From: a virus
Taxonomy: Duplodnaviria > Heunggongvirae > Uroviricota > Caudoviricetes
DNA length: 12,969 nucleotides
IMG/VR virus record: IMGVR_UViG_2602041671_000010
Strand: one strand, 5' to 3'
A program made the position numbers and the translations under genes. Of the stretch, positions 1 through 12,969 are shown in pieces. The notes beneath the pieces were generated by a model. It worked only from the letters and a program-made list of their open reading frames with translations, ran no database searches and was not told the DNA's origin. Position 1 is the stretch's first letter, and each line of letters begins with the position of its first letter.

Positions 1-463
1 ATGTCGATATGGGGATTCCCATATCGGGAACCCTACCGGATTTTTTTCCGGTTAACAGTTAATCAGGCTGGTGGGCTTTACATACCCTTGATCACCGTAA
101 TGATGATCCAGATGTGCACCTTTTCCACCAATGGCGGAAAAGCTCCAACCGTAACGATGATCGCTATGGTTGCCTCGATGGTCTGCGTGGTCATTATGAC
201 CATTCAGCCAGTGACCTTAATCAGAATTTTTCGCTAAAAAATGACGTTGGCCACGTCATCCGGAAAGCACAAAATCACGTCGATTTTTAATGAACGGTTA
301 AACCGTCTTTTTGTCACGGTGTGTCACTGGTTGTCACTCTCCGTCACGATTGAGGTGGTGGTCATTCTGCCCGACCGCGCATTTTTGCGCTATCGGGAAT
401 ATAAAACAGTTACCGCCGTCATTCAGCCAGCGCAATTTTGAGCTTTGCTTTAATCTCAGTGAG

Positions 464-745
464 TTACCGCCGTAACCGCTCCGGCTTCTTCCAGTGGTAC
501 GTGATTTTCTCCTTCTCCCGATACATCTCCACGCGGCGACGGTATGCCAGCAACTCAAGGACTCTGGTTCGTATGTTGCGCATATCCACGCCGTTAAGCT
601 CAATACCATCACGGCGCATCACCTCAGCAACCACACGCGCATAATTTTCGGCGGTCACGCTGTCCGGCTGCGTGGCCTGTTCGTCAGCCTGCTGGCTGAT
701 TCCGGCAACGCGACGGATTAATCGCAGTAGTTCGGCTTCTGTCAT
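464..745 (-). CDS. hypothetical protein (93 aa) immediately downstream of terL
   Basis: ORF in track; ATG at 745 preceded by GAGGT Shine-Dalgarno about 7 nt upstream; 13 nt after the TerL stop; no recognisable motifs. Confidence 0.5.
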   Translation of the reverse strand: MTEAELLRLIRRVAGISQQADEQATQPDSVTAENYARVVAEVMRRDGIELNGVDMRNIRTRVLELLAYRRRVEMYREKEKITYHWKKPERLRR

Positions 746-758
746 GCTGCTGACCTCA

Positions 759-2420
759 TTACACCCCGCTAAATTCTTCCAGTTTCTGGCGGTGGCTGTC
801 GCTTATATCAAAAGCAAAATCCTCATGCTCTGCCTGGAATGTACCAAACGCCATCAGCGCCGCCACGCTCGGGTCTATCTTGTTCGGTGATTTTTTCTTG
901 TTCGGCTTGATATTGGCGTTCGCGTCACTCTGCATCACGACGTTACTCATCGACCAGGACAACACCGGATCGCCACGATGCACAATCACCCTGCGGTTAA
1001 CAAAAACTTCGAACGATTTCGCCGCCGGACTGAATCTGAGGTAGGTTTGCGGGAACGGCTCCACCTCAAAACCAGCCCCCTGTAATTGCGTCCTGAGATG
1101 CGTGGCGTTCCACGTATCAAAGCCCACCAGCCTGATATTAAATTTCTCCGCATCCTGCATGATGTCATCTCTGATCCGGTCGTAATCAATGCAGTCACCT
1201 GGCGTTGTGCGTATCCAGCCCGCTTTAGCCCACTGGCGATAGACAGCGCGGTTTTTATTGGCGGGGTTCTGTAGCTGGAACTCCGGCAGATAATGACGGG
1301 AAACCAGCATGATATTTTTACCGACCGGAAAGGCATAGCACACGCTGGAAATATCGCTGGTTGATGATAAGTCCAGCCCCGCGTAACACTCCTGCCCGTG
1401 TAAATCTTCCTCCGTGAACGTTCCGGCACACTCAGCCCATGCGCCGTTACCCATCCACGGGGTAGCCCCCTGGCACCAGATATTAAATCGCTTTGTCATC
1501 ATCTCCACCCATTGCGACGGAATACCCCGCGCTTTCTGGATGGTTGAGGCCAGTTTTTCACGATCCACGGAAACATCGATGTTAGGGTTAGCCTTTATCC
1601 ACATCGCCGGATCATCAACCTCGTTTTCGTCGTCCAGCTCGTAAATCAGCACAAAAATTGAATCGTTGACCTCTTCGCCGTCCAGGATCTGGCAGCAATA
1701 ATCATAGTGCTGTTTACAGGTTGAAACGACGTTACTGCCCGATGTGGTAATGGCAAATAACAGCCCTTCGGGACGTGCGCCCATCCCCAGCTCAAGCGCG
1801 GAATAAACGCCGTTATCGGGGTGTAGGTGGTATTCGTCCACGATGGAAAGGCTTGGGTTTGTGCCCTCGATGGTTGCCGCTTTTGCTGCCAGCGGCTTTA
1901 ACAGGCTGTTGCTTTTCGGGTGCATCACCTTGTGGGCCTGAATATTCACCCGCCTGCGTAACGGTCGGGATAAAAGGCACATCTGACGCGCATCATCAAA
2001 AACGATCCGCGCCTGGTCACGGCTCACCGCTGCGGTGTAAATATCCTGCTGCCCGTTCTCCATAATCAGAAACCAGTTAGCCAGAATCGCGGCGGTCGTG
2101 GATTTCGCATTTTTGCGCGGCACTTCGATAAAGGCGCTCGTGTATTTGCGCCGTCCGGTGGCCTTAACCTTAAAGCCGAGGATGCACGCAAAGGCGAACT
2201 GCTGCCACGGCTCCAGCTCAATGGGTCTGCCACGCATCGGCCCTTTTACGTGCAGGCACACCCTGGAAAAGGCAATAAACCGCTCCACAACCTCACGATC
2301 GAACGTGTAAAGGGGGCTTTCAAGGTCCGAAAAGTACCGTTTAACGGCCTGTTTCAGCCGTTTACAGGCCGGAATTTTGCCCGTTTTTACGTCTTCTGCG
2401 TACTTATTCCAGGCGGTCAA
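759..2420 (-). CDS. terL: terminase large subunit (553 aa)
   Basis: Long ORF of typical TerL size; P-loop-like segment VPRKNAKSTTAA near the N-terminus and acidic C-terminal half consistent with ATPase plus nuclease domains; start overlaps the TerS 3' end by 17 nt as in coupled terminase genes. Confidence 0.88.
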   Translation of the reverse strand: MTAWNKYAEDVKTGKIPACKRLKQAVKRYFSDLESPLYTFDREVVERFIAFSRVCLHVKGPMRGRPIELEPWQQFAFACILGFKVKATGRRKYTSAFIEVPRKNAKSTTAAILANWFLIMENGQQDIYTAAVSRDQARIVFDDARQMCLLSRPLRRRVNIQAHKVMHPKSNSLLKPLAAKAATIEGTNPSLSIVDEYHLHPDNGVYSALELGMGARPEGLLFAITTSGSNVVSTCKQHYDYCCQILDGEEVNDSIFVLIYELDDENEVDDPAMWIKANPNIDVSVDREKLASTIQKARGIPSQWVEMMTKRFNIWCQGATPWMGNGAWAECAGTFTEEDLHGQECYAGLDLSSTSDISSVCYAFPVGKNIMLVSRHYLPEFQLQNPANKNRAVYRQWAKAGWIRTTPGDCIDYDRIRDDIMQDAEKFNIRLVGFDTWNATHLRTQLQGAGFEVEPFPQTYLRFSPAAKSFEVFVNRRVIVHRGDPVLSWSMSNVVMQSDANANIKPNKKKSPNKIDPSVAALMAFGTFQAEHEDFAFDISDSHRQKLEEFSGV

Positions 2421-2760
2421 GCTCGTCCTCTTCTTCTGTTTCCGGTGGATTTTTACGGCGGCTTATCGGGTCAAAACCGAGCAAGGAGGCCATTTTTATC
2501 ATCACTCTTTCAGCGTCGGATTTTGCGCTTAATGCGGGGTTTCTGCTCTCGCCGCCCTGACTGTTAACAATGCTGAACCCGCGCGCCGCAAGGTCTGCAA
2601 CGGCTTTCCGGTAAATGGAGTAGTTGACACAATACAGTTCCAGATTGCTCCAGTCGGCGGGGGTCAGGTCTCCCCGTTCCGCAAGCTGCCGCGATTTTTC
2701 CCGCCACTGCTTCACGGCGATGTCATCCAGGTAGGCGGGGGCTTTCGGTGGTCTTGCCAT
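2404..2760 (-). CDS. terS: terminase small subunit, P27-like family (118 aa from ATG 2760; ORF track extends to 2805)
   Basis: N-terminus MARPPKAPAYL resembles the GRPPKP-type start I recall for P27-family TerS; lies directly upstream of and overlapping terL; neither candidate start has a clear SD, so the start is uncertain. Confidence 0.72.
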   Translation of the reverse strand: MARPPKAPAYLDDIAVKQWREKSRQLAERGDLTPADWSNLELYCVNYSIYRKAVADLAARGFSIVNSQGGESRNPALSAKSDAERVMIKMASLLGFDPISRRKNPPETEEEDELDRLE

Positions 2761-2884
2761 GCTTATTTTTTTCGCCAGATTATTTTTCAAAAAATTCCCG
2801 TGCATAAAAATTTGAGGAGGCGTTCGGTGCCCGGCGGGGTCGGGTTTGTCCTGAAAACGCCCCCCACCCCGTCATACAGCCTCA

Positions 2885-3067
2885 TCAGCGATTGCGGAAA
2901 CATTCCATAACCTCGCGGTCACGGTCGGTTAATCGCTTCGCTGTGATGCGTTCTGCGCGTCCTGACGCTTTATCTTTATGCCCTGTTTCCTGTGTCTTCC
3001 ATGCGTCACGCTGCCTTATAAGTCCACGGATAAGGCGGTTTTGTTCCCGCTCATTCATCAGCGTCAT
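2885..3067 (-). CDS. small basic hypothetical protein (60 aa) between HNH and terS; may not be real
   Basis: ATG at 3067 in the frame of track ORF 2885..3289; highly charged helical-looking sequence; weak RBS; sits in a 245-bp HNH-terS gap that may instead hold a cos site. Confidence 0.3.
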   Translation of the reverse strand: MTLMNEREQNRLIRGLIRQRDAWKTQETGHKDKASGRAERITAKRLTDRDREVMECFRNR

Positions 3068-3491
3068 ACATCCAGTTATTGCGGTTAGCGGCCCGTTCTT
3101 CCTCTTCACGAAATCCACCTGCGGCACGCTTGCTTTTTGTTGCCGGATCAAGCCATTTCGTTTTCTGGTTATGACACGCCTGGCACAATGGTTGATGGTT
3201 CCATTCGGGCCAGAAGAGAACATCATCACCGCCATTAATCGGGATAATGTGATCCACCACCACGGCGGGCGTATATATCCCCTTCTCAAGGCATCGCACG
3301 CATAACGGGTTTTTACTCAGATACATGGCGCGGTATTTGTCCCACTGTCTGGAATATCCACGCGCGCGGCGGTGTCCTCGTCTGGCATCCTCTGCACGCC
3401 ATGCCGCCCGCCTGTGCTCCTCACACTTGCCGGATTTAACGCGCCTGTTACAGCCTGGTTCTGTGCATCGTCTTAATGGTTGCCACGGCAT
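3051..3491 (-). CDS. HNH endonuclease (146 aa), terminase-associated
   Basis: Cys pairs and catalytic-type motif: CNRRV...C, CVRC, VDHIIPINGG, QPLCQACHNQK; located immediately upstream of terS-terL as in HK97-like cos phages; start overlaps the stop of the upstream connector gene. Confidence 0.88.
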   Translation of the reverse strand: MPWQPLRRCTEPGCNRRVKSGKCEEHRRAAWRAEDARRGHRRARGYSRQWDKYRAMYLSKNPLCVRCLEKGIYTPAVVVDHIIPINGGDDVLFWPEWNHQPLCQACHNQKTKWLDPATKSKRAAGGFREEEERAANRNNWMYDADE

Positions 3492-3787
3492 CAGTACACC
3501 CCCACATCACGGTAAGCCGTCCAGAGTGCGCCAATCGTCATGGGTACGCGTGTTTTTGCGTTATCCGCGACAATCTGGCGATTCTCATACAGGTGAGCGA
3601 TAAACATCATGCAGCCAATCTTTATGGCTGGCGTGAACTCCAGCCCGTCATCAAAGCGCCTGCCTATGTGTATCTGGCACGCCTCAAGCGATGCGGCAAT
3701 GTATCCGCTGATTAACTGGTCTTCCTCGTCTCCATCGATACGGCAATGGAGTTTCACTTCTTCCAGGGTGATAAGTTCTTCTGTCAT
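3491..3787 (-). CDS. head-tail connector protein, gp6-like (98 aa)
   Basis: Size, position between head closure gene and HNH, and overall sequence character typical of phage gp6-like connector proteins; assignment by recognition, not search. Confidence 0.65.
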   Translation of the reverse strand: MTEELITLEEVKLHCRIDGDEEDQLISGYIAASLEACQIHIGRRFDDGLEFTPAIKIGCMMFIAHLYENRQIVADNAKTRVPMTIGALWTAYRDVGVY

Positions 3788-4122
3788 TTTTCCGCGCCCT
3801 CACGACAAAGAATTTCAAGGCGTGTCCTGGCGACATCCGGCAACGGCTGCCCGATGATATTCAGTACACGCCCCGCCAGCGGCCCCGTACTGACCTTTAT
3901 CCGGCTGGTGGCGTTGATGTCCTTCCGGTACCGTATCCAGATCCTTACGGTACCAATCGCCAGCTCTGCGCCCGATGAAATGGCCTCCTTGCTGCTGATC
4001 ATGTTCACGCTTGCCCAGAGTGTGTGACCGTCCTCCCACGTTTCGAGTATTTCGCCCGTCATGGCTCTGGTCTGTTTCAGGGTCTGAATCGTTATCCTGT
4101 CACGCAGTCGCCCTATGTTCAT
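3784..4122 (-). CDS. head closure / head-tail joining protein (about 112 aa; likely start ATG 4122, track ORF extends to 4164)
   Basis: MNIGRLRDRITIQ N-terminus is typical of head-tail joining family proteins; ATG 4120-4122 overlaps the portal stop (ATGA-type overlap), whereas the track start would overlap portal by 46 nt. Confidence 0.68.
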   Translation of the reverse strand: MNIGRLRDRITIQTLKQTRAMTGEILETWEDGHTLWASVNMISSKEAISSGAELAIGTVRIWIRYRKDINATSRIKVSTGPLAGRVLNIIGQPLPDVARTRLEILCREGAEK

Positions 4123-5330
4123 TCCGGTTTTTCTCCCTCGCTGATTTTTACTTCCTGTTTCCATGCCTGACTGAACTCATCACCACCATCACGCGGTGAC
4201 AGTCCTTCACGTTCGCGGGCTTCGTTCGGGCACATAACGCCGGATTTGATGCCGCGCTCATAGGTGGCAAAGCGTTCGCCAGGTGTGGCCCGTAACAGGT
4301 CCGCGCTGTCAAACTCCACCTGATACCGGATACCAGGTACAGGCGAGGCCACCAGCAGGGCGTTTTTTATCTGCTGCTCAAAGTTCGCCAGCCACGGGCG
4401 CATCGTCATGGTGAGAAATGCGCGGCTTGCCTCGCTGAAATTGCTGTAGGTGCTGTTGCTGTATTCCTGCAAAAAAATCGGCGAGACGTTGAACATTCGG
4501 GCGATGTCTTCAATGGTAAAGCGACGGGAGGCCAGCCATTCAGCATCCTGATTACTCATGCCCAGCTGCTGATAGCTCATCCCCCCTTCAAGGATGGGCG
4601 TTTTTCCGGCGTTTCTGGCCCCTTTGTAGCGTTCCAGTGCGGCTAATGCCTGTTTGCCCTTCACGCCGTCCAGCCATTCGCCTGACGTGATAACCCCTGC
4701 CGCCATCATGCCATCACGCATCACGCTCGCGCCGTGGCGTTGTTGGGCCAGCCCAAGCCCCAGCGATTCGCGGCAGATGGTTACAGGTGAGCGCCCCATA
4801 AAGCCGTCATCCGTGGAGTAACGAAGGTGAAGTACTTCCCATGGTAAATAGTTGTGGGTGTTTCCGGTGTAGGCGTCAGTGATGCAATAGCGCCAGTTGT
4901 GTTCGCCTGTCTGCTCCACGTTCACCGACTGCGGCGGGTAAGGATGTAAAGCCGCCGGAAAACCATCACGCCCCCACTGAATAACCGCATAAGCATTACC
5001 GTTTAACAGGCAGTGGCGGATCATCATTCGCTTAAACTGGTAGGGAGTCTGCCACGCGTTCGGGCGCTCGTTGAGGATGTGATCGACCGGATGAGAATCA
5101 AGCCACTCGCGGGCCTCCTTCCCCTTCTCATTGCGTACCAGGTACAGGTAACACGGCATAGTAGCCACCGCCTCAGAGATGACCGTGACGGCGTTCATGA
5201 CGGCGGGCAGTGATTCCGCTGTCCCCGATGATACGTACTCACCCGCCCCCGTGTTCGATGTGCCAGCCAGCGCCATAAATTCATCAAGCGTCATGCTGCG
5301 CTGCTCTTTTTTTCTTCTGAAAGGCCACAT
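4119..5330 (-). CDS. portal protein, HK97-like family (403 aa)
   Basis: Size and position between prohead protease and head closure genes; sequence has the overall character of HK97-family portal proteins. Confidence 0.85.
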   Translation of the reverse strand: MWPFRRKKEQRSMTLDEFMALAGTSNTGAGEYVSSGTAESLPAVMNAVTVISEAVATMPCYLYLVRNEKGKEAREWLDSHPVDHILNERPNAWQTPYQFKRMMIRHCLLNGNAYAVIQWGRDGFPAALHPYPPQSVNVEQTGEHNWRYCITDAYTGNTHNYLPWEVLHLRYSTDDGFMGRSPVTICRESLGLGLAQQRHGASVMRDGMMAAGVITSGEWLDGVKGKQALAALERYKGARNAGKTPILEGGMSYQQLGMSNQDAEWLASRRFTIEDIARMFNVSPIFLQEYSNSTYSNFSEASRAFLTMTMRPWLANFEQQIKNALLVASPVPGIRYQVEFDSADLLRATPGERFATYERGIKSGVMCPNEAREREGLSPRDGGDEFSQAWKQEVKISEGEKPE

Positions 5331-5331
5331 A

Positions 5332-5904
5332 TCACACCCCCGCTAAATCCACCCACCAGCGGCGATTATCCGCACGCGGCATTTTTTCGGGGTGCTGCTC
5401 ATACAGGGAACGGCGGGCCAGCTCCACGCCGGAATCAGGGTAAGCCGGAACGGATGTAACGGTAATTTCGTACAGTTCCGCCACCAGCACGGTGCGCACG
5501 CATGGTTCTGTTGTGGTATCCCATACATCCTTACGGGAACGAAAGCCAAAGCTCATGCCGGATATATCACCACGTTTAACCAGTTCGATAACGTCCCGCC
5601 CTGTGCTGGTATCCGGTGGGGTCAGTTCAAAGCGTAACCCTGTTTCGTCCTCTTCCAGTTTCAGCGTGCCGGAACGGGTACGCCCCAGTAACATGCTGTG
5701 GTCATGCTCATACAGGCCGCGAACGTCATTACCCGCTGCAAGCCATTCAGTAAACGCTCCCCGCTGGAATTTTTCGTAAAACTCACCCCATAACAGTTCT
5801 GAAAGCTTATCCCAGCGAACAACGTAGCCCGTCAGCGTACCGGCTCCGCTGGTGGTGATTTCCGATGACCGGATTTCCATACTCTTCATAATTTTTTCAC
5901 CCAT
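5332..5904 (-). CDS. prohead maturation protease, HK97 family (about 185-190 aa; start 5904 or 5889)
   Basis: Small protein between capsid and portal genes, 2 nt before the portal ATG; size and position match the HK97 prohead protease; ATG 5889 has a better SD (GGTGA) than 5904. Confidence 0.82.
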   Translation of the reverse strand: MGEKIMKSMEIRSSEITTSGAGTLTGYVVRWDKLSELLWGEFYEKFQRGAFTEWLAAGNDVRGLYEHDHSMLLGRTRSGTLKLEEDETGLRFELTPPDTSTGRDVIELVKRGDISGMSFGFRSRKDVWDTTTEPCVRTVLVAELYEITVTSVPAYPDSGVELARRSLYEQHPEKMPRADNRRWWVDLAGV

Positions 5905-5933
5905 AAAACACTAAAGGGGCTTTTAAGCCCCTT
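5905..5933 (-). terminator. stem-loop between capsid and protease genes (GGGGC/GCCCC) with a U-rich tail; likely partial terminator or stabiliser
   Basis: Inverted repeat GGGGCTT/AAGCCCC at 5916-5931; on the minus-strand RNA it is followed by UUUAGUGUUUUAU. Confidence 0.5.
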
Positions 5934-5943
5934 CTGTATGCTG

Positions 5944-7100
5944 TTAATCGTCGTCCTGTGGCAGTTCCAGAATCTTGATCGCGTTCGAATCCACCACGCC
6001 ACCGCCTAAATATTTCTGCGTGAAAATTTTGATGAAGCCCGGCTCTGTGAGGTTGTCCGGTCTGGTGCGAACACCTGTTTCGTGATCAACAATGTAGTAA
6101 CCGCGCTTGAAGTCACCCAGGGCAATAACGTTATCAGGCATAAACTCCAGATATTCGACCGGAAGGCCCAGCAACGTATCAGGATCACCCGCCTGTAAAC
6201 GGTCGCGCCAGATGTAATCACCGTTCGCGTTCTTCACCTTCTGAAGTTTTGCCGCCGTCGTGGAGTTAACCACCCAGACCGCGTTTTTGCGGTATTTTTT
6301 ACGTAATGCAAATTTCAGGTCGATCAGCGGGTCCGCAGATGTCCACGCCAGAGATTCGGAAGGTTTAATTACCTGCAACGTACCAAAATCACGCTCTTTG
6401 TCGTTCTTCTCTGCACGGGGTACGGATAAAAAGCCTTTTGCTTTTTTGTCACCGTCGCCCACAACCAGATCGCTTTCTTCGGTTTCCGTGAAGGTGTCGC
6501 CAATCTCACCCGTCAGCCATGAAAGGATGTCCACATCGGAAAAATCCACGATTTCCTGTGTGGTGCGCGGGTACGCATAGACCGGATACAGCTTAATGCT
6601 CACCTCGTTAATCTGCGGGGTGCTGGTCTGTTCGCGTGCCTTACCCTCTTCACCGTGGTTAACGGTCGCACCGCCAGCGGAAACAAGCTGCTTAAACTCG
6701 TTGCTGCTGATTTTTTCACGGTACAGATGCGGCGCATGGTGGACTCATCCACCAGCATTCGCATGATTTCGGTGTTCAGTTCGGGGATAACGGTATAACC
6801 ACCATCAGCGGGAACGCCTGTACTTAATGCGCGGGTTTCACCTGTCAGAATGTAGCTGCGTAGTTCTGCGGGGTCAGTGGTCTGGCTGCTTTTACCTGGC
6901 TTGCTGCGCTCTTCGTCTGCAATGGCTTCAAGGCGGGAAATGTCTTTATCGAGGGATTCAGCTTTAGCGCGTAATTCGTCAAATTTTGCGCCCTCAGCAT
7001 CGTTAAGACTGCGGTTTTCTTTTTCCGCGTTCTCCAGCATGTCGCGCATCTGATTTTTAATGGCGGTTTTCTGCTGGCGTAATTCGATTATTCTCGGCAT
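5944..7100 (-). CDS. major capsid protein, HK97 fold, interrupted by a 1-nt frameshift in an A6 run (6711-6716); N-terminal coiled-coil delta domain
   Basis: N part (track ORF 6600..7145 from ATG 7100): coiled-coil then GETRALSTGVPADGGYTVIPELNTEIMRMLVDESTMRRICTV. C part (track ORF 5944..6603): my own translation of the same frame upstream of 6603 gives ISSNEFKQLVSAGGATVNHGEEG, continuing into LYPVYAYP...VVGDGDKKAKGFL, matching HK97-family conserved blocks. The two parts join if the run were A7. Confidence 0.8.
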
Positions 7101-7140
7101 AAAAAAAAGTCCTGGGGTTAAGTAAGGAACTCCAGGACGC
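7101..7140 (-). terminator. intrinsic terminator abutting the major capsid ATG
   Basis: Minus-strand RNA GCGUCCUGGAG-loop-CCCCAGGAC followed by U8, then AUG directly. Confidence 0.65.
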
Positions 7141-7321
7141 GGCAAAAACTCAACCGTTTTTCATAAGGGAATCAGCAATCGCACCGATCGTTTTCCCGCC
7201 TGGTAATGAATATTGGCGAGCACATTAACAGGCGGGAAAGTGGCCCCAGCGTCCTGGCACCACGGGCGAGAATAATCATGATTCAGTTCGGGTAAAATAT
7301 GCCGATCCGCTCAGTGAACAA
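7141..7321 (-). promoter_or_regulatory. candidate late promoter (-35 TTGTTC, 16-nt spacer, -10 TATTTT at 7294-7321) and roughly 185-nt structured leader
   Basis: Promoter-like hexamers read on the minus strand; leader contains an 11-bp stem (UUUCCCGCCUG/CAGGCGGGAAA) and a CCAGGACGC element complementary to the terminator 5' arm. Confidence 0.4.
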
Positions 7322-7360
7322 CGTGGAACAACCACGAACAAATAATTTACAAAAAATAAC

Positions 7361-7383
7361 AAAAAGCCGGATTGCTCCGGCTG
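7361..7383 (-). terminator. intrinsic terminator (GCCGGA-TTGC-TCCGGC plus U-run on the minus strand)
   Basis: Perfect 6-bp GC-rich stem with tetraloop; A5 on the plus strand equals a U-run 3' of the hairpin on the minus-strand RNA; downstream of ORF 7393..7617. Confidence 0.7.
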
Positions 7384-7392
7384 TATGGGTGC

Positions 7393-7617
7393 TCAGTCCC
7401 TGATCCCTTTCAGAAATTCTATCAATGCATCTGTCTGTTCAGGATTTACCGCCAGCATTTCACCGGATAGCGCGCAACGAACAAAACCATGATGATCCTT
7501 TTCAATCAGCGCCCCCGTTTCCAGGAATGCTCGGTAATCAGTGATGTTCATCGTCTCCATGTTGTCAGCATGGTATTTATCACGCTGTTTTAATATCTCA
7601 TCAAATTTCGTCGGCAT
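7393..7617 (-). CDS. hypothetical small protein (74 aa) in a terminator-insulated monocistronic unit
   Basis: ATG 7617 preceded by AGAGGA SD about 7 nt upstream; flanked on both sides by near-identical intrinsic terminators; no recognisable motifs. Confidence 0.6.
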   Translation of the reverse strand: MPTKFDEILKQRDKYHADNMETMNITDYRAFLETGALIEKDHHGFVRCALSGEMLAVNPEQTDALIEFLKGIRD

Positions 7618-7712
7618 TGTTTTTTCCTCTGTTGTGTCTGTTTGTTTCAGATAGTAACTATGCCGGACCGTGACGAAAAGCCAGTAGTGCGCCATACCAT
7701 TTCAAATGACGC

Positions 7713-7736
7713 AAAAAAAGCCGGATTGCTCCGGCT
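7713..7736 (-). terminator. intrinsic terminator, near-identical copy of the 7361..7383 hairpin
   Basis: AGCCGGA-TTGC-TCCGGCT with A7 on the plus strand (U7 tail on the minus RNA); downstream of ORF 7759..8007. Confidence 0.7.
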
Positions 7737-7758
7737 GCGTGGTGTGGTTCTGATATTC

Positions 7759-8007
7759 CTACTCAGCTAATTTGCTCAGCCCCATGTCTGCATAAGTGCG
7801 ATTTACTGCATTTCTCAGGTCTGCGTAGTTCTCCGTTGGCGGCTCCGGTGGCCTCTGTGCCTTCCTGGAACATTCCAGCCGTCGCATCGTAACCTGATGC
7901 CGTTCCTTGTCTGTCTCCACCAGTTGCATGACTTCACCCCATCGCGCCGACGCCCTCCGGTAAAAGCCTTTTGCCTCGAGTTCCTCCGCTATGCGGTCAT
8001 GTACCAT
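7759..8007 (-). CDS. hypothetical protein (82 aa from ATG 8007; track ORF extends to 8127)
   Basis: ATG 8007 has a GAGGGGG SD at good spacing and avoids overlap with ssb; upstream starts overlap ssb; followed by an intrinsic terminator. Confidence 0.5.
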   Translation of the reverse strand: MVHDRIAEELEAKGFYRRASARWGEVMQLVETDKERHQVTMRRLECSRKAQRPPEPPTENYADLRNAVNRTYADMGLSKLAE

Positions 8008-8017
8008 CGTCACCCCC

Positions 8018-8428
8018 TCAGAACGGAATACCGTCACCGTAAGGGTCATCGCCTCCCGCTGGTGGCTGATTACCCTGTGTGCCTGTGGTTTTGCGTCTGT
8101 TCCCGCCTGGACGTGCCGCGCGGGCACTGATTACGCTGTCTGCAATAACCTGATACCCCTGCCGTGTTTCCCCGTTCTGTCCGGTCCACTGGCTGATCTG
8201 CATGTTACCCGCCACGGTCAGGAGTTCACCTTTGCGGTGCCTTGCCAGTGCTTCGGCCTGTCTGCCAAATGCCAGGACGGATAACCACATCGTCACCGTT
8301 CCGTCATCTGCCTGGCTGCACGGAAGGGGGACCGCCATACTCGCCATCGTCATTTGTGTACCCTTGCTGGTGGTCTTTAACTGCGGGTCAGCCACCAGCC
8401 GCCCGTAAGCTGCAATTTGTGCTGTCAT
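8018..8428 (-). CDS. ssb: single-stranded DNA-binding protein (136 aa)
   Basis: OB-fold-like N-terminal region, Gly/Pro/Gln-rich linker and acidic C-terminal tail ending DDPYGDGIPF (compare the DDDIPF tail of bacterial SSB); GAGGTGG SD 4 nt upstream of ATG. Confidence 0.8.
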   Translation of the reverse strand: MTAQIAAYGRLVADPQLKTTSKGTQMTMASMAVPLPCSQADDGTVTMWLSVLAFGRQAEALARHRKGELLTVAGNMQISQWTGQNGETRQGYQVIADSVISARAARPGGNRRKTTGTQGNQPPAGGDDPYGDGIPF

Positions 8429-8505
8429 ATTGCCACCTCAGTGAAGCGATCCGGCGTTGTTCTTTTTCATCTTTTTCATCTCTTCCATCATTTTTTCAGT
8501 GAGCA

Positions 8506-8751
8506 TTACGCACTGAAAACCCATTTTTTGATGTCTACGGGTTTCATGCCTTTGTCAGTGGATATCACAGGCAGAATATCCTGATACACATCGCGGTCAG
8601 GGTAACTAAGCACACAAAGCGCCCATGATGCCACGGGTGAGGATCCTTCGTCTGTTTCAACCCACCAGCCTGGTGTAGCTGCGCTTATTTGCAGAATCGT
8701 GATCCGTCCGTTGTGCTTGTAAAATTTTTCACCAAATTTTGCTTCGCTCAT
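8506..8751 (-). CDS. hypothetical protein (81 aa)
   Basis: Strong SD (GGAGAGGTGG); ATGA overlap with the stop of the upstream ORF suggests translational coupling. Confidence 0.55.
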   Translation of the reverse strand: MSEAKFGEKFYKHNGRITILQISAATPGWWVETDEGSSPVASWALCVLSYPDRDVYQDILPVISTDKGMKPVDIKKWVFSA

Positions 8752-8990
8752 GATTCCACCTCTCCGGTTTTAACGTTGATTGTTGTTACCTGTTCCGCTT
8801 CGGCAATCTCCCGCTCTGTCAGCGTGGCAAAATTTGCCGCCGTCGTGGTCATGAATGCGCTTATCAGTTCGGGATGTGCTTTCGCGTATCCTTCCCCCGC
8901 GTGGCGGTCTATTACCCTGATTGCCACCTTTAAGGCGTGCTCTGTCATGTCTAACGCTTTATATTTCGGCCCTGTTCTGTCTCTGCGCAT
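8748..8990 (-). CDS. hypothetical protein (about 80 aa; track ORF starts at 9017)
   Basis: ATG 8990 preceded by GAGGAG SD at 9-nt spacing; the 5' end of the track ORF overlaps the iteron array. Confidence 0.5.
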   Translation of the reverse strand: MRRDRTGPKYKALDMTEHALKVAIRVIDRHAGEGYAKAHPELISAFMTTTAANFATLTEREIAEAEQVTTINVKTGEVES

Positions 8991-9000
8991 TTTGGTTATC

Positions 9001-9203
9001 TCCTCACTCATGCTCACTTTTACACCTCACTTTTTAAAGCGTCTCGCTTCGTCTCAGTTGATATTTTTTGATGCTTTATGTGCGTGTTTCATAAGGATTT
9101 TTTTACTCCTCACTTTTGAGCATGTATACAGGTGAGAAAGTGAGTAATCGTGTTAATATTTTGTAAAAACCTCACCATTACTCACTTTTGCTACTCACTT
9201 TTT
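9001..9203. repeat. iteron array, putative replication origin
   Basis: Five direct copies of CTCACTTTT (9013, 9026, 9109, 9181, 9194), two extra CTCAC cores (9003, 9171), an inverted pair GTGAGAAAGTGAG (9132-9144) and an AT-rich stretch (9055-9105), immediately 3' of the replication gene stop. Confidence 0.6.
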
Positions 9204-10599
9204 ACAGTGGTCCTACATCATCACCATCAATGTAAATCACGGCGTCTTTTTCCAGTTTGGCTAACCATCGCCGCATATTTTTCACGTCATACCCAAGCCG
9301 TTTCATGTCATCACGTAACAGCGGGATCGTGCACTTGTCGCCGTTCTGTGTGCGTGAACGGATGCACCCCCATAGTGCGGTATGGTTTTCCGTCTTGTTG
9401 CCTGCCTCCTCGATGCGCTCCAGTTCAACGGGAGGGCGCGGCTTATCCACCACCACCAGCGACGTGATTAACTCCCCGTCAGCGTCGGTAAACAGCTCCA
9501 CCACGCGTAAGTCATATGCGGCTTCTTTGAGTTCCTCCGCGTCCTTCATTTTGGTGCATGAGATAACCAGCGCTTCGCTTCCTGCGTCCTCCCTGCGTAT
9601 CCGGTATTCAGCATCCAGCGAAGCACGAAATGCACTGGAACCGCGCGCGCCTTTCGTCTCATCCTTGCCGGAATGGTGAACCACCAGCACCGTGGCCCCT
9701 GTGCGCCGTTTAAGCTCGTCACACCCACGGATAAACGCCCCCATATCACGGGAATCATTTTCATCATTGCCACCAAAGCAACGCGCCAGAGTATCAAGAA
9801 TAATCATGCGTACAGGTTTACCCGTTTCCCGCTCCACCTGACGGGCAGCGATAACCAGTTCATCAACATCAAGCGGGACAGCCGGAAAAACTGGACGGTT
9901 TACCAGATACAGATTTTTCACCTGCTCACCGTGCACAACCTCCCAGGCTTTTACACGACGCGGAACGCCGATACCGCCTTCACCAACCACATAGAGAACA
10001 GCGCCATGCGCCACCCTGCGGCCTCCCCACTGGCGGCCCGTGGAAACGTGACACGCCCACGAACCCGCAAGGAATGATTTATAGGAACCGCTTGCCCCGT
10101 ATATGCTGCATAGCGACGATGCCGGAATAATCCCCTTTACCACGTAATCTAATTGCGTGTCGTATCCGGCAGATCCAACGCTCATCGGTAGCGTGGTTTT
10201 TCGCTGGTGGTGTTCTTCCCCTGGCTTTTTCCCCCGCTCCCGTTCCAGATATTCGCGCCAGTTCTCCCGCTTCTGGCTGTGTATCCCTTCGGGGTAATAA
10301 TTCGCATCAGTTACGCCCGCCGCCGCCAGCTTGTGCGCAATGGCATTAATATTTGATGGCCTGATGTGGCCTGCCTTGTACAGCCGGACACAATAGCGCC
10401 CCTCGTCGATGATTCTCAGGTCTGCCAGTTCATCCAGTTGATCATCAGCCAGCACAATGGGAGGCACATTATCGCCAGCCAGTCGCCCGTCCTGTTCCTG
10501 CCACTGTTTCGCATGTGCCCACGCATCACTACCCGCAAAAATGATGACTTCGGTCATCTTGTCGTAAGGCTGTTTTTTTAAGTTCGGTGCGCTTTTCAT
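9202..10599 (-). CDS. replication protein: RecA-like P-loop ATPase (AAA_25/RepA-like), putative primase/helicase (465 aa)
   Basis: Deviant Walker A GASGSYKS, Walker B-like RMIILDT, HHSGK motif typical of RepA/DnaB-like ATPases; ATGA overlap with the upstream gene; iteron array immediately after its stop. Confidence 0.75.
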   Translation of the reverse strand: MKSAPNLKKQPYDKMTEVIIFAGSDAWAHAKQWQEQDGRLAGDNVPPIVLADDQLDELADLRIIDEGRYCVRLYKAGHIRPSNINAIAHKLAAAGVTDANYYPEGIHSQKRENWREYLERERGKKPGEEHHQRKTTLPMSVGSAGYDTQLDYVVKGIIPASSLCSIYGASGSYKSFLAGSWACHVSTGRQWGGRRVAHGAVLYVVGEGGIGVPRRVKAWEVVHGEQVKNLYLVNRPVFPAVPLDVDELVIAARQVERETGKPVRMIILDTLARCFGGNDENDSRDMGAFIRGCDELKRRTGATVLVVHHSGKDETKGARGSSAFRASLDAEYRIRREDAGSEALVISCTKMKDAEELKEAAYDLRVVELFTDADGELITSLVVVDKPRPPVELERIEEAGNKTENHTALWGCIRSRTQNGDKCTIPLLRDDMKRLGYDVKNMRRWLAKLEKDAVIYIDGDDVGPL

Positions 10600-10895
10600 T
10601 TCTTGCCCCTGAATCCGTTAATCATGTTTTTCATCTTCTGAATATTGGCGCGTGCTTTCTCCCTGCAGGTGGGCACGTTATGCGGCGCGGTCTGTACCAG
10701 AGAAAAATCACGCCGGAACTGATAAACAGGCATCACGCAATCATATTCGTAGCCTTCACGACGGTAGGTGATGCGCCGTTCTGCCACGCCTTTAATCGTT
10801 ACCGTACCGCCGTAGTTATCACGGAAAATATCGCCGGGGCGGATTTCAGGCCGAGAGAAGTCACTGGCAGTAAAGCCAGAATTTTTCTTTTTCAT
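10596..10895 (-). CDS. small conserved hypothetical protein (99 aa), possibly DUF4222-like
   Basis: ORF translationally coupled to the replication gene (ATGA overlap at 10596-10599); DUF4222 assignment is from memory of P4-like replication modules and is unverified. Confidence 0.45.
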   Translation of the reverse strand: MKKKNSGFTASDFSRPEIRPGDIFRDNYGGTVTIKGVAERRITYRREGYEYDCVMPVYQFRRDFSLVQTAPHNVPTCREKARANIQKMKNMINGFRGKK

Positions 10896-11086
10896 GGTTT
10901 TTATTTTCCTGTCAGTGATTCAAGTTTTATTCCGGCACGAATACAGGCCTCAGAAAAAAAGCCAGAGAACCAACAACCTCATTATTTCTAAGGCGGCATT
11001 GTGATTTCACTTTCCCTTTATCGAGAAATATCAAAACGCGTCCCGTATAATCTGACGGCACATTAAGAACTACAGGTAAGTGCGCT

Positions 11087-11281
11087 TCATAATTGTGCAT
11101 GGTGCGCCCCCTGACGAATACGGGCGGCGAACACAGCAACACAACCGTACGGGCAACGGTTACGCGCTTCGCGTTCCGTCCAGGCGGTTACGTGGATGAT
11201 TTGATGGTCTGACGCGCCAAAGGCAATAAAGCGCCAGATAAAGGCTGTTTGAGAATGTACGAGGGCAGGGGTAGTAGCCAT
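11087..11281 (-). CDS. Icd-like small protein (64 aa), paralog 2
   Basis: ATG 11281 with strong SD GAGGAGG 8 nt upstream; motifs TAFIWRF, TEREAR, VFAARI resemble what I recall of Icd-like host cell division inhibitor proteins. Confidence 0.5.
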   Translation of the reverse strand: MATTPALVHSQTAFIWRFIAFGASDHQIIHVTAWTEREARNRCPYGCVAVFAARIRQGAHHAQL

Positions 11282-11650
11282 GTTGGCAGCCTCCTCAGTG
11301 TGGTTAAGATAACCGCCACGCAAAAGGCTAATTTCGCTGGTGGCGGACTGTACAGGGTTAGCCTTACCGGACACTGAAGAAACCGGCGCGGATTGCTCCG
11401 CCCCCGTACAGCCCACCATTGATAAGGTGTGACTATGCGGCACAAAAAAACACGCGGGGCGCGTGCTGTGCGCTTCAGTTGTTTTCAGGAGGCTAATCCC
11501 GACACCCGTTTTATGAGGTGCGCGGGAATCATAGCTATTTTCGACACTGGCGATCAACTGGTTTTTTTCTCCGATATTCAGGGCCAGAAAACGCCACACA
11601 AAGGCAGTTTGTGTGTGTACAAGGTGTGGTATATGATTTACAGCAACCAT
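11282..11650 (-). CDS. Icd-like paralog 1; ATG 11650; no in-frame stop before paralog 2, so nominal product is the 187-aa read-through
   Basis: ATG 11650 with AGGAG SD 5 nt upstream; N-terminus LVHTQTAFVWRFLA parallels paralog 2; an intrinsic terminator-like hairpin (11441-11465) lies inside the reading frame. Confidence 0.4.
11441..11465 (-). terminator. terminator-like hairpin between the two Icd-like paralogs (CACGCG-CCC-CGCGUG plus U7)
   Basis: Minus-strand reading CACGCGCCCCGCGTGTTTTTTT; 6-bp stem with short loop followed by a T-run. Confidence 0.45.
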
Positions 11651-11740
11651 AACGGCTCCTAGTTTACGTTGTTGGTTAGAAGCCCCGTTACTGCTCCTAC
11701 AGTGCGGGGTTTCGTCGTTTCAACACCTTGCCTAAATAAG

Positions 11741-11792
11741 GTGTTGAACACCAATTTAAATCGAGGTGTTAAACACGTCAAGTGTTGAACAC
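11741..11792. promoter_or_regulatory. three inverted-repeat operator sites GTGTT-N-AACAC in the divergent control region, overlapping a candidate promoter for the RHH gene
   Basis: GTGTTGAACAC at 11741-11751 and 11782-11792, GTGTTAAACAC at 11766-11776; -35 TTGAAC (11785-11790) and -10 CATACT (11807-11812) at 16-nt spacing. Confidence 0.55.
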
Positions 11793-11841
11793 TTATTTTT
11801 TTCCTGCATACTGCATTTGTTTTTTATGAGGGGTGCTCAAC

Positions 11842-12021
11842 ATGGCGACAAAAGCAGTAAACGCAAAATCACAAACAGTTGCGGCAAGGGTTCCACATGA
11901 AGTTATGAACAATGTTGAGGCGGTAAAAATGCCCGGCGAAAGTACAGGGCAGTTTGTTACAGCTGCATTAAAGCGGGAAGTTGAATACCGCCAGCGTCGC
12001 AAGGCCAAAGAATCAGAATAA
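11842..12021 (+). CDS. Arc/Mnt-like ribbon-helix-helix DNA-binding protein (59 aa)
   Basis: ATG 11842 with GAGGGG SD 8 nt upstream; N-terminal beta-strand-like TVAARVPHEV followed by two short helices; upstream inverted-repeat operators. Confidence 0.6.
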   Translation: MATKAVNAKSQTVAARVPHEVMNNVEAVKMPGESTGQFVTAALKREVEYRQRRKAKESE

Positions 12022-12025
12022 TCAC

Positions 12026-12070
12026 CATCAGCGCCGTGGCGTGAGGTACTACGGCGCATTGCTTTACAGG
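12026..12070 (+). repeat. conserved 45-bp hairpin spacer, copy 1 (copy 2 at 12711..12755)
   Basis: CATCAGCGCCGTGGCGTGAGGTACTACGGCGCATTGCTTTACAGG; two-mismatch copy after the second RHH gene; contains a GCGCCGT/ACGGCGC stem. Confidence 0.6.
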
Positions 12071-12078
12071 GCAGTACC

Positions 12079-12306
12079 ATGACCAACAACACACTATCAC
12101 CAATACAAGACACGCAGACGCAAGAAGATGAAATCATTCGGCAAAGGCAGTTAGAAACCTGTGCTCGCCTTGAAGCCGAACTGGCTAATCCTCTGAATAT
12201 CCAACTAATACCGATAGAAATGAAACCTGGACTATTCGCGTTGGAGGCATTTTTAGCAAGCTGCCCACGGCGGCTAAAGTCCCGTAAGAATCGCCCGCCA
12301 GGATGA
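12079..12306 (+). CDS. hypothetical protein (75 aa) downstream of the first RHH gene
   Basis: ORF in track; preceded by a conserved 45-bp hairpin spacer; N-terminus MTNN parallels the second cassette's downstream gene (MTNK); weak SD. Confidence 0.45.
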   Translation: MTNNTLSPIQDTQTQEDEIIRQRQLETCARLEAELANPLNIQLIPIEMKPGLFALEAFLASCPRRLKSRKNRPPG

Positions 12307-12439
12307 GTACACAAAACCGAACTATGAAACGGATTATTCCGTTTCCGGGGCGTTTGTGTGTGTATAAAGAGTAAGCTATGCTCTTTTATAGCCATAATCG
12401 TTACCTCAATTAATGGTTTGGTTAGACGCCCCGTATGTG

Positions 12440-12476
12440 TTCCCATCACTGCGGGGCGTTGTTTTTTGTGCTAGTT
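12440..12476 (+). terminator. intrinsic terminator between the two plus-strand cassettes
   Basis: ACGCCCCG...CGGGGCGT 8-bp stem followed by TGTTTTTTGTG. Confidence 0.55.
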
Positions 12477-12482
12477 GTGTGT

Positions 12483-12508
12483 AATGTGTATATACACATA
12501 AACACATT
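12483..12508. promoter_or_regulatory. nested palindromic operator upstream of the second Arc-like gene
   Basis: 16-bp perfect palindrome ATGTGTATATACACAT (12484-12499) containing a TATATA -10-like element, flanked by outer inverted arms AATGTGT/ACACATT. Confidence 0.6.
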
Positions 12509-12526
12509 ATATGGAGTGTAATTGAC

Positions 12527-12706
12527 GTGTCAACACACAAAAATGAAAGGCGTGGTAATCCTCCTTTCCAGTTCCGTTTAGATCCTGACTTACGGGAAAA
12601 GATGGAAAAAGCACAACAACAAGACGGTGATGACTCTTTAGCAGCTTGGATAAAACGAATAATCCGAAAAGAATTACAGCAACGCGGTATTGAACCCAAA
12701 GAATAA
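12527..12706 (+). CDS. Arc-like ribbon-helix-helix repressor (59 aa, GTG start)
   Basis: Translation NPPFQFRLDPDLREKMEKAQQQDGDDSLAAWIKRIIRKELQQRG closely resembles the Arc repressor pattern (PQFNLRWPREVLDLVRK...); GGAG SD 10 nt upstream; 16-bp perfect palindrome just upstream; below the 60-aa cutoff so absent from the ORF track. Confidence 0.7.
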   Translation: MSTHKNERRGNPPFQFRLDPDLREKMEKAQQQDGDDSLAAWIKRIIRKELQQRGIEPKE

Positions 12707-12763
12707 AAAACATCAGCGCCGTGGCGTGAGGAACTCCGGCGCATTGCTTTACAGGTACACACA

Positions 12764-12969
12764 ATGACCAATAAAGAATCAACCAATACACCATCGCAAA
12801 AAACGAACAGAGAGCACGAAAATATGGCGCTCGAGCATGAATCAGAAAGATTCGCTCCATGCGCTTTTGTCCTTGATGAGTTTCTAAAAAAATATTCACG
12901 TTCTGAACGGATGAAAATGGCAGCACAATACGGCCCCAACAAGCAAGGTAATTGCCCACCAGCCTGATA
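12764..12969 (+). CDS. hypothetical protein, 3' end beyond the window (partial)
   Basis: ORF in track runs to the window edge; same position and MTN start as 12079..12306 in the first cassette. Confidence 0.4.

Follow-up and report, generated by a model that had tools for sequence, protein, structure and literature searches.

At the right end of the window, by which we mean the whole 12,969-nucleotide stretch of viral DNA analysed here (IMG/VR record IMGVR_UViG_2602041671_000010), two cassettes follow one another on the plus strand, each encoding a 59-residue ribbon-helix-helix (RHH) protein of the Arc type and a small protein that we call D. Our analysis was computational throughout and drew on sequence, comparison and predicted structures. 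The two cassettes share one order of parts, namely a plus-strand hairpin, palindromic operators, the RHH gene, a 57-nt spacer and a small open reading frame (ORF) starting MTN, and in both the spacer stem is formed by GCGCCG and CGGCGC. An earlier note on this DNA had listed the same inventory, all of which we found in place:

11679-11713, plus strand: hairpin 1 with a T-rich tail, terminator-like (fold -21.9 kcal/mol, z -4.4; minus strand -16.6).
11842-12021, plus strand: RHH1 ORF, 59 aa, type R2 (ORF list, family match).
12022-12078, plus strand: spacer 1, 57 nt, with a stem-loop at 12031-12057 and a CAGG Shine-Dalgarno-like site.
12079-12306, plus strand: small protein D, 75 aa, type D75a, starting MTNN (homologs, family alignment).
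12425-12460, plus strand: hairpin 2 with a T-run (GTTGTTTTTTGTG; fold -23.3 kcal/mol, z -3.8).
12527-12706, plus strand: RHH2 ORF, 59 aa, GTG start, type R13 (phrog_228, AlphaFold2 model, Foldseek).
12707-12763, plus strand: spacer 2, 57 nt, with a stem-loop at 12716-12742.
12764-12967, plus strand: small protein D, 67 aa, type D67, starting MTNK (phrog_21027, family alignment).

The only long DNA similarity between the cassettes is the spacer block, identical at 51 of 56 nt, which extends at ~84% identity to ~75-93 nt and reaches the first codons of the downstream ORF. The spacer had been described as a conserved one of 45 bp; its conservation stands, and its length is 57 nt. For comparison we assembled 120 loci by a pattern scan of viral contigs, yielding 129 cassettes including the window's own two, and the spacer measured exactly 57 nt in 124/124 cassettes. 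The invariance of the stem in the 129 pattern-derived copies holds by construction, as the search pattern fixed the stem, and covariation drawn from them is invalid. Three divergent copies obtained without the pattern keep the pairing via G.U pairs that are effective on the plus strand only, two of the three with a single stem mismatch, and the tail of the stem-loop is only moderately U-rich. We read the stem-loop as a putative intercistronic element that would set the ratio of RHH to D, as a partial terminator or a 3' stabiliser. RHH and D always occupy the same plus frame, and the RHH stop codon alone separates them in 104 of 124 spacers. An RHH-D fusion through stop readthrough or recoding was considered and rejected, given further in-frame stops in 20/124 spacers and a TAA stop on RHH in 121/124.

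The upstream hairpin is likewise a constant of related loci, where all 36 of 36 sequence variants fold, with compensatory changes and a T-rich tail after the stem, and the plus strand is the more stable in 35 of them (mean -23.5 vs -17.6 kcal/mol). Hairpin 2 likely ends the transcript of cassette 1. In the source island a strong plus-strand terminator with a 13-bp stem and a U7 tail lies ~70 nt past the D67 stop, beyond the window end. We observed that this terminator (L001, 15639-15671; window-equivalent 13038-13070) falls within the 5' part of a minus-strand ORF and that the peptide encoded there, KKAAPIWSRL, is conserved between islands.

We then compared the two RHH proteins with known families and folds. 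RHH1 scored 59.7 bits with the NCBIfam model NF041551 (YlcI/YnfO), whose curated cutoff is 30, matched phrog_949 at E=6.5e-22 and carries the RefSeq label YlcI/YnfO. RHH2 aligns with the YlcI/YnfO family as a distinct branch and matched phrog_228, 'Arc-like repressor', at E=1.5e-6. A profile of 15 RHH types found P22 Arc, over its full length, as the best sequence in the PDB. The AlphaFold2 (AF2) model of RHH2 (mean predicted local distance difference test score, pLDDT, 79) is extended over residues 13-19 and helical over 20-33 and 38-52, and its pLDDT exceeds 90 over 20-52. In a Foldseek search of the PDB all 38 of 38 matches were RHH proteins (NikR, Arc, CopG, CopA, MazE9, AmrZ, PutA), superposing with a root-mean-square deviation of 0.7-1.0 over 35-39 residues; the E-values are weak owing to the short protein. 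Across the family alignment the turn GES/GET/GD(D/T)S and an Arg at the end of the strand are conserved, the Arg invariantly, and the strand residues vary by type. These findings support the assignment of RHH1 and RHH2 as Arc-like RHH proteins, in line with what had been proposed for them. The two RHH proteins and the two small ORFs had been described as diverged. BLASTP detects no similarity between RHH1 and RHH2 and reaches only E=0.3 between D75a and D67, yet family alignments join each pair in a single family.

Serratia, Yersinia, Klebsiella, Pantoea, Pectobacterium, Xenorhabdus and other Enterobacterales have RHH2 homologs of 80-90% identity, and in six Serratia and Yersinia loci examined the homolog is flanked by a primase gene and by alpA, the latter with or without a Bro/AntA-type gene. 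Searches of deposited phage genomes with RHH1 and D67 by tblastn gave no match, and the RHH and D proteins are not in the lists supplementing the Ribo-seq paper on small genes of O157. We also noted that the RHH alleles R1, R3 and R7 are 101-106 aa long and have an extra C-terminal helical extension (AEGSGENPL...AREELQRRK) ahead of the conserved tail.

Upstream of each RHH gene, palindromic repeats lie among predicted promoters of both directions:

11741-11751, 11766-11776 and 11782-11792, both strands: operator set 1, the 11-bp palindromes GTGTT(G/A)AACAC (GTGTTGAACAC, GTGTTAAACAC and GTGTTGAACAC, respectively).
11753-11781, minus strand: predicted leftward promoter PL1, TTGACG-17-TAAATT (9/12 in a consensus scan), overlapping operators 2 and 3 of set 1, with its predicted start in operator 1.
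11785-11812, plus strand: predicted rightward promoter PR1, TTGAAC-16-CATACT (read from the sequence).
12484-12499, both strands: operator set 2, a perfect 16-bp palindrome, ATGTGTATATACACAT (read from the sequence).
12482-12493/12498-12509: inverted repeat around operator set 2, TAATGTGT...ACACATTA; the looser pattern matched once here.
12506-12533, minus strand: predicted leftward promoter PL2, TTGACA-16-TATAAT (12/12 in a consensus scan), with its predicted start in the palindrome.

When the window was scanned on both strands for GTGTT(G/A)AACAC with one mismatch, we obtained 6 matches (3 sites on 2 strands) vs 0.48 expected, a count reached by 0 of 200 shuffles, and all of them fell within operator set 1. 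The set 1 repeats recur with the same RHH type (R2) in other islands, Yersinia and Serratia islands pair the motif of operator set 2 with the same RHH type as here, and with upstream regions sorted by type the repeat sequence changes together with the RHH type. The YlcI-type cassettes share an upstream plan consisting of the hairpin, type-specific repeats, a conserved CGTCAA (TTGACG on the minus strand), a T-rich stretch, a conserved TATACT and usually one more repeat, and the predicted PL and PR positions relative to the RHH start are conserved across them. In five representatives of the YlcI type (R2, R5, R11, R12 and R15) the distance between the -10 element TATACT/CATACT and the RHH start is conserved. 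At cassette 2 the -35 of the predicted PL2 overlaps the RHH2 start codon, and TGTCAACA there is conserved in three unrelated RHH types. We read the repeats as probably covering the spacer and start of the predicted PL and the start of the predicted PR; they would suit binding by an RHH dimer or tetramer, a predicted interaction, and they change with the RHH type. The earlier suggestion of a diversifying unit of a regulatory or immunity type agrees with this pattern, in which the layout is conserved and the palindromes vary with the RHH type.

Opposite the cassettes, the minus strand is open. In the window this antisense frame, which resembles eta of phage P4, is carried by three ORFs:

12406-12969, minus strand: ORF A, eta-like part 1, antisense to cassette 2 (250 aa in the source island, with its ATG 52 nt after the alpA stop).
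11793-12449, minus strand: ORF B, eta-like part 2, an icd-like N-terminal remnant that continues in frame as the antisense of cassette 1, with its stop in operator 3.
11087-11650, minus strand: ORF C, an icd-like start, the isrK/C4 region and a complete Icd-like domain (NCBIfam phage_ICD_like at residues 137-180; Pfam Phage_ASH at residues 40-133).

The frame we tested was the minus phase whose wobble positions coincide with those of the RHH and D frames. From RHH through the spacer to D it contains no stop in 15 RHH types, bar one D copy in an R10-type cassette, and the other two minus phases hold 1-7 stops per element. The operator and promoter DNA, which is non-coding on the plus strand, has 2 stops in this phase vs 131 in the remaining pair of phases (binomial P=9e-21, over 15 type representatives), and for the coding parts synonymous shuffles gave a combined P of 1e-6.7 to 1e-13 for the openness of the frame. 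The open length has a median of 1,020 nt and passes the hairpin in 84 of 128 instances. In most of 116 instances the first ATG and the alpA stop are no more than ~60 nt apart or overlap, and a strong Shine-Dalgarno site often precedes the ATG. The frame ends as an Icd-like C-terminus in 69/129, with 299-765 codons from stop to stop. Within the window the stop of ORF A (12406) overlaps the Shine-Dalgarno that belongs to the following start, at 12395. Certain other islands of type R2 have no stop of this phase in the operator DNA (TTG for TTA), and there the open frame continues beyond the hairpin. The antisense overlap is present in Serratia and Yersinia loci too. The encoded peptide changes completely with the RHH type and has no domain match besides the Icd-like end. 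The whole cassette is embedded antisense in an eta-like frame that is kept stop-free without conservation of its peptide. Where the cassettes lie, gene callers and RefSeq place long minus ORFs or 'Icd-like/ash' pseudogenes.

Because D and the open minus frame have their wobble positions in common, codon-position statistics are uninformative for the coding strand of D, and we used an analysis of synonymous switches instead. Members of the D family have an MTN start, a variable middle and the motif ERFAPCAFALExFL or P..FALExFL, and across deep branches P..FAL[ED].F[LV] is preserved through synonymous codon switches (Leu CTT/TTG/TTA/CTC, Ala GCC/GCG/GCT, Pro CCA/CCT/CCG, Phe TTT/TTC). Over this motif conservation is lower for the minus-frame peptide (0.33) than for the plus-frame peptide (0.46). 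D is a coding gene, since synonymous switches keep its motif while the peptide of the opposite frame changes. Together with the conserved homologs, the switches also bear out the view that the downstream ORFs are genes and not fragments of a larger one.

These observations bear on two ways of assigning the overlap to a single strand. If the RHH and D ORFs were unexpressed shadows of a minus-strand gene, one would point to the shared wobble positions, through which third-position statistics cannot separate the frames, and to RefSeq records in which D is unannotated; this reading is hardly credible in view of the fold and family matches of RHH, its GxS/T turn, operators that vary with the RHH type, conserved Shine-Dalgarno sites, starts and terminators, and switches at several positions of the D motif. 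Conversely, the long minus ORF could encode a functional, hypervariable protein of the Eta/Bro-network kind and not merely be kept open for translation. Strong selection for openness, the start and Shine-Dalgarno after alpA, and the count of P4 eta among Bro-network genes (PMC10111431) all favour such a protein. We consider it improbable, as no domain matches outside the Icd-like end, the peptide is wholly different with each RHH type and rich in Cys, Ser and Arg as an antisense translation is, and the D motif is better conserved on the plus strand.

The D family is tiny, with 12 clusters among 1.84 billion representatives. Homologs of D75a are 57-66% identical and of equal length, D67 matched phrog_21027 at E=2.2e-12, and a family alignment joins the two. 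D75a is missing from the RefSeq annotation of the source island record. A scan of the species representatives of a genome collection with the single protein D gave no match, and D matched nothing in Pfam, NCBIfam, PADLOC, PDB sequences or, by Foldseek, PDB folds. A hit of D67 to Cas8g at 17.6 bits, vs a curated cutoff of 125, was judged spurious. The AF2 model is helical and highly charged (pLDDT 67), largely of low confidence, and confident only in the helix of the motif (78-91). The D family is a narrow but real family of small helical proteins, and our guess is that D is a regulator or adaptor acting through the conserved helix.

We weighed whether each cassette might instead be a type II toxin-antitoxin pair, with RHH as antitoxin and the small protein as toxin. 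The bicistronic layout with RHH first, the promoter palindromes, the mobile element and weak matches of RHH2 to antitoxin models of the VapB/HicB type would all suit such a pair. Several findings make it quite unlikely. D, with its charged, helical and mostly low-confidence model, resembles no toxin family, defence model or fold; only ~10 residues follow helix B in the 59-aa RHH forms; and RHH and D reassort freely, without cognate pairing. Moreover, the same RHH occurs without D in Serratia islands (86-88% identical), and in Yersinia islands a 57-aa predicted membrane peptide replaces D (L127-L129, 4205-4378). It had been suggested earlier that the downstream ORFs match no recognised family and may be novel effectors; the lack of a family match stands, and a toxin or antirepressor role finds no support, as D matches neither a family nor a known fold, does not co-vary with RHH and is absent or replaced in other genera.

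The C-terminus of the Yersinia membrane peptide, SSIEPKG, echoes the RHH tail (GIEPKG/EIELKG), and in those three Yersinia loci the spacer is only 24 nt and without the GCGCCG hairpin. An 83-aa 'AlpA family' protein in an E. coli record (P0012) consists of the C-terminal 25 residues of D75a fused to AlpA sequence, indicating a rearrangement that placed D75a and AlpA on one strand in some genome.

We also examined how the cassettes vary among relatives. The spacer is present in 1,682 of 5,426 complete E. coli genomes (~31%), at 2,757 places and with up to 7 copies per genome. The gene upstream of it is always of RHH type; at least 15 types can be told apart, mainly by their N-terminal strand and first helix, and the gene downstream encodes a 57-75-aa protein of 7 types. 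Each RHH type pairs with 1-5 D types, one of them with five. Tandem arrays recur elsewhere with other type combinations, and one genome carries at least three RHH cassettes. Between the window's own cassettes a further feature lies on the minus strand:

12351-12395, minus strand: icd-like 5' remnant (MAIKEHSLLFIHTQT...), ~15 codons, whose Shine-Dalgarno overlaps the stop of the upstream minus ORF.

This remnant marks the recombination joint between the cassettes. Because cassette 2 carries the icd-like first codons, the unit that was joined spanned the icd 5' end to the end of the small ORF. The icd-like N-terminus (M..HTQT/HSQTAF.WRF) is found in three copies on the minus strand, at 12395, 11650 and 11283, two of them truncated, and these copies look like scars of repeated recombination in the icd 5' end. 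Collectively, the comparison shows that RHH and D alleles reshuffle at conserved joints, namely hairpin, spacer and 5' end of icd. The two tandem cassettes had been suggested to form a duplicated and diversifying module. We find in them a joining of two RHH alleles, out of at least 15, with two D alleles, out of 7, and other tandem combinations exist elsewhere, so that the pair is, judging by its relatives, a chimera of two pre-existing alleles and not an in-place duplication; it plausibly formed by deletion between tandemly integrated islands.

Such allelic variety raises the possibility that the cassettes are heteroimmunity or exclusion modules, in which a resident RHH would shut the PL of incoming satellites of the same type and tandem arrays would widen the range. 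Many operator and RHH specificities within one species, the recurrence of heterotypic arrays and the up to 7 spacer copies per genome are what this would lead one to expect. Each cassette adjoins its own PL in cis, so self-repression is the simplest role, and as a primary function exclusion seems unlikely to us, while the two roles are compatible.

The window is 99.9% identical to an E. coli chromosomal island between phoQ and roxA. RefSeq annotates on one strand of this source island an integrase, an alpA-type helix-turn-helix gene, a RepA helicase, a single-stranded DNA-binding protein (SSB), PerC, capsid, protease, portal, connectors, HNH and terminase. This gene set fits the description in the paper on phage-inducible chromosomal islands that form capsids (cf-PICIs), of int, alpA and rep with the island's own capsid and packaging genes in one direction (EcCIEDL933 type), and the window is a cf-PICI satellite of E. 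coli. Both cassettes sit between alpA and the operon of icd/ash, replication and capsid genes, and theirs are the sole opposite-strand genes of the island. In the window the cf-PICI body occupies 1-11000 on the minus strand with the large and small terminase, HNH, connectors, portal, HK97-type protease, major capsid protein, a PerC-family regulator and SSB; a RepA-type helicase (9202-10599) and DUF4222 (10596-10895) also belong to it. A match at 10539-10615 (plus strand) to the eukaryotic snoRNA GlsR14, at 20 bits vs a gathering score of 90, was judged to be chance. Two small RNAs lie just left of cassette 1, upstream of the Icd-like gene and inside the 187-aa minus ORF at 11087-11650:

11336-11423, minus strand: C4 antisense RNA (Rfam, 75.4 bits, above the gathering threshold).
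11445-11521, minus strand: isrK RNA (Rfam, 61.8 bits, above the gathering threshold).

The arrangement of C4, isrK and Icd-like gene is a leader of the P1 immI / P4 immunity type, and the loop of isrK shows complementarity to the ribosome-binding site of the icd-like gene (AGGAGGCT at 11295-11288). We rejected the spacer and the hairpins as targets of C4 or isrK, with complementarities of 8-10 nt at chance level; the pairing of isrK with the icd ribosome-binding site is the meaningful one. In the same region the Pfam Phage_ASH match (residues 40-133 of ORF 11087-11650) overlies the stretch coding for isrK and C4, and the Pfam 'Ash' family may be the translated RNA-gene region of an eta-like ORF, comparable to the old 'cI gene product' ORF of P4. 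A promoter-like TTGGCA-16-TAAGAT at 11283-11310 (plus strand) points rightward, antisense to the icd-like start and C4/isrK. A transcript from it would stop at hairpin 1, which might account for a plus-strand terminator upstream of the RHH promoter.

Taken together, we interpret the locus as an Arc-like immunity switch embedded in an anti-termination ORF within the switch zone of a cf-PICI satellite, a reading to which we assign a probability of roughly 0.6. The earlier note had described the module of two cassettes and was silent on this zone, with its leftward promoters and C4/isrK, and on the stop-free antisense frame across both cassettes. Under the switch model each cassette would be a rightward operon of PR, RHH repressor, 57-nt spacer with its stem-loop, D and terminator. 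The RHH dimer would bind its own type-specific palindromes, whose overlap with PR would give autoregulation, and the predicted PL, strong in cassette 2, would face the icd-like/ash, replication and capsid genes. In the quiescent island, as the comparative anatomy suggests, PR would yield RHH and D, and RHH would shut PL and limit its own synthesis. Upon helper infection AlpA-dependent transcription would come in from the right, and translation of the stop-free frame would shield the late transcript from Rho-dependent termination across the cassettes and on to the icd, replication and capsid genes; both of these steps are modelled on P4, the second on its eta/kil, and on the stop-codon statistics. 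We conjecture that the convergent transcription would then lower RHH synthesis and free PL.

Several observations weigh against this interpretation. RHH2 falls under the NF041551 cutoff (20.0 bits vs 30, E=5e-4), and the Arc sequence match of the RHH profile is marginal (E=0.049). The promoters were identified by consensus matching, with a weak -10 box in several PLs. The antisense frame in the window is cut into three ORFs, with one stop 143 nt before the next start, so that an anti-termination role may be weakened here, and C-rich/G-poor stretches resembling Rho utilization (rut) sites on the minus-strand RNA are only modest. Finally, single-cassette islands keep the plus-strand terminator upstream of PR, for which the switch model does not account.

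A close parallel to the proposed switch is the left operon of P4, with its promoters PLL and PLE and its immunity through CI RNA. There eta is coupled to the alpA homolog vis and contains both PLE, a constitutive promoter, and the CI/seqA RNAs; Kil, a shortened Eta, forms its end, and translating eta allows late transcripts to avoid being terminated (PMC10111431). In the P4 sequence the 3' end of vis is overlapped by a 214-aa ORF, and kil forms the end of that ORF. The cf-PICI locus likewise has an alpA/vis-type gene followed by a long ORF that in 69/129 related cassettes ends as a Kil/Icd-like protein of the cell-division-inhibitor type, an internal promoter within that ORF (here PL1 and PL2, predicted, the predicted PL corresponding to the constitutive PLE) and C4/isrK RNAs of the CI/seqA type in the leader. 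It differs from P4 in that a small RNA silences PLE there, whereas here silencing by protein is predicted, cassette 1 having an RHH together with the C4/isrK RNAs. The eta region of P4 has no annotated plus-strand gene, and no RHH-like sequence was seen on reading its ORFs (without a profile scan), whereas at least one RHH and D operon lies antisense in the ORF here, and in the window the frame is divided among three ORFs, coupled or adjacent.

Similarities extend to other immunity systems. In the immI region of P22 the RHH repressors Arc and Mnt control the ant operon, and immI of P1 and P7 comprises c4 RNA, icd and ant. The cassettes share with them a small Arc-like RHH, palindromic operators at close opposed promoters (predicted here) and an operon that starts with icd/ash-type genes and a C4 RNA; they are set apart by the YlcI/YnfO family with its marginal similarity to Arc (E=0.049), by the replication and capsid operon of a satellite, by the additional D and by the antisense embedding. 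Like Stl and Rpr, the master repressors of Gram-positive PICIs (Staphylococcus aureus pathogenicity islands, SaPIs), the repressor gene stands opposite to the replication-packaging operon at a regulatory junction, whereas the repressor fold here is RHH. Gram-negative PICIs have been reported to be induced through AlpA. RHH1 scores above the cutoff of the NCBIfam YlcI_YnfO_N model and so resembles YlcI and YnfO of the K-12 cryptic prophages DLP12 and Qin; those K-12 genes presumably lie near the terminase genes of lambdoid prophages and not in a satellite switch zone, and our literature search found no paper characterising YlcI or YnfO. The antisense overlap also recalls the long antisense genes of E. 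coli O157:H7 and Pseudomonas, in which hundreds of codons overlap with evidence of selection; here, by contrast, the constraint is one of openness without peptide conservation, explicable by translation-dependent anti-termination. Precedents exist for the RHH fold, for C4/isrK and Icd-like genes, for AlpA control and for eta/kil. In the PICI papers that we examined, and in a full-text search, we found no description of a hypervariable RHH/operator switch in Gram-negative PICIs, nor of a small partner gene with a fixed-length spacer or of an operon antisense in an eta-like frame.

The locus offers a clean natural case of two-strand coding, in which selection on one frame acts on its protein and selection on the opposite frame acts only to exclude stops, and it is usable as an example for models of how overlapping frames are maintained. 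Gene finders here call the wrong strand or neither, leaving RHH and/or D unannotated in some RefSeq records and labelling the antisense frame a pseudogene. More tentatively, and as a possibility we regard as doubtful, the hypervariable RHH could be the long-sought master repressor of Gram-negative PICIs, the counterpart of Stl, with the RHH gene and the anti-termination ORF forming an obligate two-strand unit in which expression of each strand would silence the other. RHH would then hold a strong internal promoter shut, until helper infection bypassed or inactivated it through AlpA-driven convergent transcription across the RHH gene or through helper anti-repressors. With the spacer in ~31% of complete E. 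coli genomes and RHH2 homologs in many Enterobacterales, the question of the repressor is directly testable, and such a role, if true, would explain the diversification of the RHH proteins and the occurrence of heterotypic arrays.

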